A stretch of DNA of 64,000 bases from Escherichia coli (GCF_024502345.1 NZ_JALDNN010000001.1), one strand, 5' to 3'. Shown: positions 37,096-38,252, counted from the stretch's first letter. Notes: generated by a model from the sequence alone, not told the origin. Translations and numbers: made by a program.

Positions 37096-38187
37096 ATGCG
37101 TTTTCTGCGCCGACCAATATCGCTGCGCCAACGGCTGATATTGACCATCGGGGCCATTTTGTTGGTGTTTGAGCTGATCAGCGTCTTCTGGCTATGGCAT
37201 GAAAGTACCGAGCAGATTCAGCTGTTTGAGCAGGCGCTACGCGACAATCGCAACAACGATCGCCACATCATGCGTGAGATCCGCGAGGCGGTCGCCAGCC
37301 TGATTGTCCCCGGCGTCTTTATGGTCAGCCTGACGCTATTTATCTGCTATCAGGCGGTACGCCGCATCACCCGCCCGCTGGCGGAGCTGCAAAAAGAGCT
37401 GGAAGCGCGCACCGCCGACAACTTAACGCCCATTGCCATTCACAGCGCCACCCTCGAAATCGAAGCGGTGGTTTCAGCGTTAAACGATCTGGTCAGTCGC
37501 CTGACCAGCACGCTGGATAACGAAAGGTTGTTTACCGCTGACGTCGCGCACGAACTGCGAACGCCACTGGCGGGGGTACGTTTGCATCTGGAACTGCTGG
37601 CGAAAACGCATCACATTGATGTAGCACCGTTAGTGGCACGGCTTGATCAGATGATGGAGAGCGTCTCCCAGCTGCTGCAACTGGCGCGTGCCGGACAGTC
37701 ATTTTCTTCCGGTAATTATCAACATGTAAAACTGCTGGAAGATGTCATTCTCCCCTCGTATGACGAACTCAGTACCATGCTCGACCAGCGACAGCAAACC
37801 CTGCTATTGCCAGAGAGCACCGCCGACATCACCGTTCAGGGTGATGCAACCCTGCTGCGGATGTTATTGCGAAACCTGGTAGAAAACGCCCATCGTTACA
37901 GCCCGCAAGGCAGCAACATTATGATTAAGCTGCAAGAAGATGGCGGAGCGGTCATGGCAGTTGAAGATGAAGGACCAGGTATTGATGAGAGTAAATGCGG
38001 GGAGTTGAGTAAAGCGTTTGTACGTATGGACAGCCGTTATGGCGGGATTGGTCTGGGGTTAAGTATTGTCAGCCGCATTACACAGTTGCATCACGGGCAG
38101 TTTTTCCTGCAAAACCGGCAAGAGACTTCCGGCACGCGGGCCTGGGTACGGCTGAAGAAAGATCAGAACGTGGCAAACCAGATATAA
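37096..38187 (+). CDS. basS: Sensor histidine kinase BasS (PmrB)
   Basis: 363-aa ORF from ATG at 37096 (MRFLRRPISLRQRL...); HisKA motif ADVAHELRTPL. Confidence 0.95.
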   Translation: MRFLRRPISLRQRLILTIGAILLVFELISVFWLWHESTEQIQLFEQALRDNRNNDRHIMREIREAVASLIVPGVFMVSLTLFICYQAVRRITRPLAELQKELEARTADNLTPIAIHSATLEIEAVVSALNDLVSRLTSTLDNERLFTADVAHELRTPLAGVRLHLELLAKTHHIDVAPLVARLDQMMESVSQLLQLARAGQSFSSGNYQHVKLLEDVILPSYDELSTMLDQRQQTLLLPESTADITVQGDATLLRMLLRNLVENAHRYSPQGSNIMIKLQEDGGAVMAVEDEGPGIDESKCGELSKAFVRMDSRYGGIGLGLSIVSRITQLHHGQFFLQNRQETSGTRAWVRLKKDQNVANQI

Positions 38188-38252
38188 AGAAAGCTGCTGA
38201 CCACCAGCACGCTGAACACGGTAGTTAAACTTTCATAAACACGGTTTTTCAT
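38163..38252 (-). CDS. pmrR: Small membrane protein PmrR (29 aa), overlapping the 3-prime end of basS on the opposite strand
   Basis: Reverse complement translates to MKNRVYESLTTVFSVLVVSSFLYIWFATF*; absent from the ORF track because it is under 60 aa. Confidence 0.7.
   Translation of the reverse strand: MKNRVYESLTTVFSVLVVSSFLYIWFATF

Follow-up and report, generated by a model that had tools for sequence, protein, structure and literature searches.

The window analysed here, the whole stretch of 64,000 nucleotides of Escherichia coli DNA, carries the sensor kinase gene basS/pmrB at 37087..38187 on the plus strand, as given by the ORF list and the RefSeq annotation. Opposite the 3' end of this gene a short reading frame was found on the minus strand at 38163..38252, which has an ATG start and 29 codons followed by a TGA stop and encodes the peptide MKNRVYESLTTVFSVLVVSSFLYIWFATF. 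The frame was supported by the ORF list, by RefSeq and by the NCBIfam model NF033224, and its position and translation were exactly those given in a preliminary description of this DNA. That description had attributed the omission of the frame from the ORF track to a size cutoff, and the ORF lister indeed leaves the frame out when its default cut-off of 60 aa is applied. The two genes are convergent and share their last 25 bp (38163..38187), with both stop codons inside the overlap, in agreement with the antisense overlap claimed for the end of basS. The peptide had also been described as hydrophobic; its 19-residue Kyte-Doolittle mean peaks at 1.94 over residues 9-27, and from length and hydropathy it is a product of 29 aa with one hydrophobic, potentially membrane-spanning segment.

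The peptide was matched by NF033224, the NCBIfam equivalog model named 'LpxT activity modulator PmrR', with a score of 72.7 bits (cut-off 30, E = 1.5e-20), and residues 1-29 aligned to positions 1-29 of the 29-position profile. A Pfam search with the same peptide returned no family, the best match having E = 0.35. When a 501-bp query around the ORF was compared with complete E. coli genomes it was matched in 5412 of 5426, and among the matches listed 20 of 20 RefSeq records carried 'pmrR: LpxT activity modulator PmrR' between pmrB and proP. A RefSeq record identical over the 501 bp gave the order adiC, eptA, basR, pmrB, then the convergent pmrR (WP_000797656.1) and proP. In K-12 MG1655 the same 90-nt gene is annotated as pmrR (b4703), 'small regulatory membrane protein PmrR', with the product MKNRVYESLTTVFSVLVVSSFLYIWFATY (YP_004831120.1). 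Alignment to the annotated pmrR had been proposed as a check in which divergence would count against the assignment, and 28 of 29 residues were identical to the K-12 protein. The alignment of the surrounding 321 bp revealed only two bases that differ from K-12, one in a REP-like hairpin and one in codon 29 of pmrR. The order eptA-basR-pmrB followed by a convergent pmrR at the pmrB 3' end was found in the window, in RefSeq and in K-12. The curated model and both annotations therefore agree with the original naming of the peptide as PmrR. It is practically certain that this ORF is pmrR, a gene that is activated by PmrA (BasR) and encodes a peptide of 29 residues, which crosses the inner membrane once and inhibits LpxT. 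This gene has been annotated and characterised before, and the window contains no new gene at this position.

The gene upstream of pmrR in E. coli is proP, which is separated from basS by an intergenic region of 176 nt (38188..38363). Read on the minus strand from the proP stop (38364) towards pmrR, the first feature is a REP-like GC-rich hairpin at 38322..38352, with the sequence GGCCTGAT...ATCAGGCC, identified from sequence and fold. Elsewhere in the window three matches above the gathering threshold were obtained for the REP-derived nucleoid-associated RNA naRNA4 (Rfam RF02564, CssrE), at 43988..44064 and 44088..44164 on the plus strand and at 46640..46720 on the minus strand.

The regulation of the peptide by PmrA, stated in the preliminary description, is reflected in a PmrA (BasR) box, CTTAAGGTTCACTTAAT, in the pmrR promoter at 38297..38313 on the minus strand, ending 44 nt before the ATG. 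When the strict pattern YTTAAK-N5-YTTAAK was scanned over the 64 kb window, two matches were obtained compared with 0.04 expected, one preceding pmrR and the other preceding eptA (34715..34731 on the plus strand, 47 nt before the eptA start). The minus strand then reads, in order, CTTAAGGTTCACTTAAT, 10 nt, CATACT (38286..38281), CTCCTCC, AGGTTAAC, GGAGGAGAGT, GCA and ATG. The hexamer CATACT (38281..38286), 10 nt after the box, is the predicted -10 element, and the eptA promoter has the same layout, with the box, 10 nt and a hexamer that shares A2 and T6 (GAGCAT). From this geometry the PmrA-dependent transcript would start at 38273..38274 on the minus strand, approximately 7 nt after the -10. 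A scan for sigma-70 consensus promoters returned none at 37900..38600, as is expected of an activator-dependent promoter without a -35 element. The Shine-Dalgarno sequence GGAGGAG was read at 38259..38265 on the minus strand, 6 nt before the ATG.

The eptA promoter was also found to contain a perfect 13-nt inverted repeat, AGCCAACCTTAAG / CTTAAGGTTGGCT, at 34700..34731 on the plus strand, by which a third CTTAAG half-site arises, 2 nt upstream of the canonical PmrA box.

The conservation of these elements was examined in 80 pmrB loci, which were fetched with the BasS protein from contigs representing one genome per species, so that there was no selection for pmrR. By tblastn and ORF scan, at least 51 of the 80 species loci proved to have a PmrR-like ORF of 27-33 aa that converges on the 3' end of pmrB; this number is a lower bound, as the ORF filter accepted only frames that begin with ATG and whose C-terminus fits W-x(1,2)-[TS]-[FYW]. 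In at least 51 of the 80 the module that adjoins pmrB comprises the ORF, the PmrA box and the Shine-Dalgarno sequence, and at least four further loci gave tblastn matches at the right place. The genera with a PmrR-like ORF were Escherichia, Citrobacter, Klebsiella, Raoultella, Kluyvera, Kosakonia, Phytobacter, Pseudocitrobacter, Trabulsiella, Yokenella and Pluralibacter, while none was found with the filter in the loci of Pectobacterium, Rahnella, Rouxiella, Ewingella and Chimaeribacter. Residues M1, F21, W25 and the C-terminal [TS][YF] were kept in all aligned peptides, the last position being F or Y.

The promoter elements were compared across 49 orthologous upstream regions. Both TTAA cores of the PmrA box were invariant in 49/49 promoters, and the distance from box to ATG was 41-44 nt in most loci, with 53 nt at one locus (L022) where the start call is shorter. 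The predicted -10, nAnACT in alignment columns 37-42, was represented by A38 in 45/49, A40 in 49/49, C41 in 46/49 and T42 in 48/49, and the GG of the Shine-Dalgarno sequence (columns 61-62) was invariant. The reading frame and its identity, the promoter box and the ribosome-binding site, together with the conservation of each, were thus read directly from the DNA compared here.

The sequences of the peptides diverge with distance from E. coli. When 32 representative peptides were searched with NF033224, 13 were matched at E <= 0.01, including those of Escherichia and Citrobacter; the more distant peptides are positional orthologues rather than members at the level of the model. Because only 13 of 32 reach the model at this threshold, the distant pmrR orthologues may go unannotated in their own genomes. 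In Klebsiella, Raoultella, Kluyvera, Kosakonia and others (loci L009-L063) the peptide has 30 aa with the form MQK...GF..HQWVLT[FY], and these orthologues carry the same module of PmrA box and hairpin with a gene other than proP as the upstream neighbour. Among the loci compared, proP lies upstream of pmrR only in Escherichia and Citrobacter amalonaticus. The 80 loci were without Salmonella, and the comparison with Salmonella PmrR was indirect, using the consensus of the Rfam family STnc630 as a proxy.

The overlap with pmrB is of a different nature. It measures 25 bp in K-12 and in other Escherichia species, and ranges from -8 to +57 nt in other genera, which indicates that it is not conserved as such but is incidental to the compact arrangement. 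Within the overlap a single base, 38167, contributes to two proteins: it is A on the plus strand of the window and T in K-12, and serves as the second position of codon 29 in pmrR and the first of codon 361 in basS, as seen from alignment, translations and sequence. This base is the sole coding difference from K-12 in the 321-nt comparison and changes PmrR by Y29F and PmrB by Y358N (K-12 numbering). The F29 and Y29 alleles were each found on at least 1000 contigs, both named PmrR. Y358N was reported to mark phylogroups B1, C and part of E and to be unrelated to colistin resistance, in a large survey in which PmrR is nowhere mentioned (PMC11451601). The Y29F change is probably neutral for PmrR too, because F and Y alternate at the last position among the orthologues. 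The widely reported PmrB Y358N is therefore also PmrR Y29F, which should be useful to curators and to readers of colistin-resistance genotypes.

Two starts are in use for basS. The longest ORF and RefSeq PGAP use a TTG at 37087, directly after the basR stop, giving 366 aa, and the K-12 start is annotated 9 nt downstream, giving 363 aa; the PmrB residue numbers in the literature follow K-12.

The region between the PmrA box and the ATG is occupied by a second hairpin, at 38256..38283 on the minus strand, with the arms ACUCUCCUCC (38283..38274) and GGAGGAGAGU (38265..38256) and the loop AGGUUAAC (38273..38266). The 3' arm includes the Shine-Dalgarno sequence, and the 5' arm runs from within the predicted -10 through the discriminator, which places the predicted transcription start at the junction of the 5' arm and the loop. 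The fold has 10 bp and a free energy of -19.9 kcal/mol (z = -3.1), and the consensus structure of Rfam STnc630 draws the same hairpin as a helix. A covariation test was carried out on a 13-pair helix in an alignment of 49 distinct orthologous upstream regions. The helix was paired in 82.3% of cells, compared with 72.5% in shuffled alignments (reached by 0/500) and 38-51% when the helix was slid, and the covariation score was 0.319 compared with 0.159 in the shuffles (again 0/500). Double changes occurred at eight pairs, one of which, for example, was AU in 17, CG in 15, GC in 5 and GU in 6 regions. The four outer pairs are weak because their columns are those of the conserved -10 (nAnACT). Compensatory changes maintain the helix from Escherichia to Klebsiella, Kluyvera and Kosakonia, and it covaries also in genera whose upstream neighbour is not proP. 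As an intrinsic terminator of pmrB or proP the hairpin was rejected, there being no U-tract after it on either strand.

The position of the hairpin suggests, tentatively, a filter for the origin of the transcript, by which only transcripts initiated by PmrA would be translatable and read-through would be silent; we regard such a role as possible but somewhat less than probable. A PmrA-initiated transcript starting at about 38273 would be without the arm that is complementary to the Shine-Dalgarno sequence and could be translated, whereas a transcript reading through from upstream would carry the complete hairpin of -20 kcal/mol and would be translationally silent. Read-through into pmrR does occur, as the upstream gene is reported from SEnd-seq to terminate within the coding sequence of pmrR (PMC10687069). 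A consensus scan gave a terminator-like site at 38209..38195, where a terminator-like stem, TGCTGGTGGTCAGCA, with a T-rich tail extends over 38185..38209 on the minus strand, inside the pmrR coding sequence. If the hairpin acts as such a filter, the synthesis of PmrR would be strictly PmrA-dependent.

That PmrR depends on PmrA, is translated, resides in the membrane and inhibits LpxT is taken here from the literature and not from the window data. The direct biochemical demonstration of PmrR is reportedly that of Kato et al. 2012 in Salmonella, where the peptide is said to bind and inhibit LpxT. In the proposed mechanism PmrB/BasS would sense Fe3+ or mild acid, or be stimulated through PhoPQ-PmrD, and phospho-PmrA would bind the CTTAAG-N5-CTTAAT box (38313..38297) and activate the promoter through the -10 located 10 nt downstream. 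The short pmrR mRNA would be translated from its strong Shine-Dalgarno sequence, and PmrR would insert in the membrane and inhibit LpxT, the source of lipid A 1-diphosphate. With position 1 of lipid A left free, EptA could add phosphoethanolamine there, which would make the surface charge less negative, increasing polymyxin resistance and decreasing deoxycholate resistance. As pmrR decides the occupant of lipid A position 1, the gene matters for resistance to polymyxin/colistin and to bile.

Published experiments on E. coli support several of these steps. The E. coli pmrR was described as overlapping the pmrB 3' end and having its own PmrA box, and deletion of this box in a PmrA-constitutive strain led to polymyxin B sensitivity and deoxycholate resistance; polymyxin resistance was restored by an lpxT deletion, and ectopic pmrR complemented the defect (E. 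coli W3110 derivatives; PMC8129183). Ribosome profiling, the second check proposed in the preliminary description, has been published for the K-12 gene in the form of Ribo-RET reads at the start site, where the peak of PmrR increased 5-fold in low Mg2+ (PMC11429745); this accords with the strong Shine-Dalgarno sequence of the window. In the same study PmrR-6xHis, made from the K-12 allele, was located in the membrane fraction, and a pmrR deletion had a growth defect in low Mg2+ that was complemented only with an intact ATG (PMC11429745). The low-Mg2+ growth defects caused by deletion or overexpression of pmrR were independent of lpxT, so that LpxT may not be the sole target of PmrR, and pmrR promoter reporters were inactive under Mg2+ limitation (PMC11429745). 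The K-12 data concern the Y29 allele and the window carries F29, both of which are natural among the orthologues. Nothing contradicts the identification of pmrR, and these caveats concern the mechanism only.

The same DNA has been studied from the side of pmrB, and could be read mainly as the pmrB 3' untranslated region, with stem-loops that set the level of pmrB mRNA and a small ORF irrelevant to polymyxin resistance. This reading draws on the observation that pmrB(BL21) conferred colistin resistance only when followed by 103 bp or more of its downstream DNA, 126 bp being needed for the full effect, and that pmrB mRNA was 315-fold lower in the +86 than in the +126 construct (PMC8004244). The hairpin at 38256..38283, moreover, folds on the plus strand too. 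The construct ends, however, map onto the elements of the pmrR promoter. The published numbering is fixed by +176, which corresponds to the 176-nt basS-proP intergenic region. By this numbering +86 is 38273 and ends at the predicted start site, without the -10; +103 is 38290, with the -10 included and the box excluded (MIC 4); and +126 is 38313, which coincides exactly with the box's outer end (MIC 16). The requirement for downstream DNA thus coincides with the pmrR promoter elements, a possibility also raised by the authors (PMC8004244). Also against the 3'-UTR explanation, the half-life of the mRNA was equal between constructs (PMC8004244), and the pmrR PmrA box is required for polymyxin B resistance through LpxT (PMC8129183). 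The nine core pairs of the helix contain 33 G.U wobbles on the pmrR-sense strand compared with 9 on the pmrB-sense strand, a bias towards pmrR-sense function that is supportive only, being partly confounded by the constraint that the Shine-Dalgarno sequence places on the G residues of the 3' arm. We consider it unlikely that the stretch acts mainly as a pmrB 3' untranslated region. The reinterpretation of these constructs in terms of pmrR is itself incomplete, because the loss of L-Ara4N and the effect on mRNA level (+86) are not explained by PmrR alone.

It would be considerably more surprising if the locus were a non-coding small RNA with an incidental ORF, and we judge this to be very improbable. 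The reading originates from Rfam RF02052 (STnc630), which matched the minus strand at 38156..38321 over model positions 1-166 of 166 and scored 178.5 bits, the gathering score being 55. The RNA transcribed here is antisense to the 3' end of basS, and pmrR-basS has been listed among convergent excludons (PMC12288877), which makes an RNA-level effect on basS conceivable besides the coding function. Within the model, however, lie the PmrA box, the hairpin and all of the pmrR coding sequence, and translation of its consensus gives MKNRIYESLTTVFSVLIVSSFLYVWVTTY*, a PmrR-like peptide of 29 aa; the consensus and the window both carry the intact, conserved 29-codon frame and the Shine-Dalgarno sequence. 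Residues M1, F21, W25 and the C-terminal [TS][YF] have persisted despite the divergence of the DNA and the variation of the overlap, and complementation in E. coli needs the ATG (PMC11429745). A literature search on the name 'STnc630' found no paper. The STnc630 family is therefore the pmrR gene region or its mRNA.

A 29-codon ORF is not significant on its own, because 38 ORFs of at least 20 aa were listed in the surrounding 2.5 kb; the significance of pmrR comes from its homology (E = 1.5e-20), RefSeq annotation, positional conservation across genera and PmrA box, which together with the published translation and phenotypes (PMC8129183, PMC11429745) make a chance ORF without a product the least credible explanation, with next to no probability.

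The identification of the ORF as pmrR can be placed beside three known systems. The closest is PmrR of K-12, whose gene has the same length, likewise converges with basS and overlaps it by the same 25 bp. K-12 and the window are identical in the PmrA box, the -10, the hairpin, the Shine-Dalgarno sequence and 28 of 29 residues, and the one residue that differs is Y29 in K-12 compared with F29 in the window. STnc630, first listed for Salmonella and described as an enterobacterial 'sRNA', has the same locus and strand as pmrR; it is typed as an sRNA gene, yet its model describes the pmrR gene region and not a demonstrated non-coding RNA, and a reading of STnc630 as pmrR mRNA should be useful to curators. 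MgrB and MgtS, of the PhoPQ/PmrAB network, resemble PmrR in having 50 residues or fewer and one hydrophobic helix, in their induction by envelope or Mg2+ stress and in binding a larger membrane protein (PMC11429745). They have no sequence relationship to PmrR, and the targets differ, being PhoQ for MgrB, MgtA/PitA for MgtS and LpxT for PmrR.
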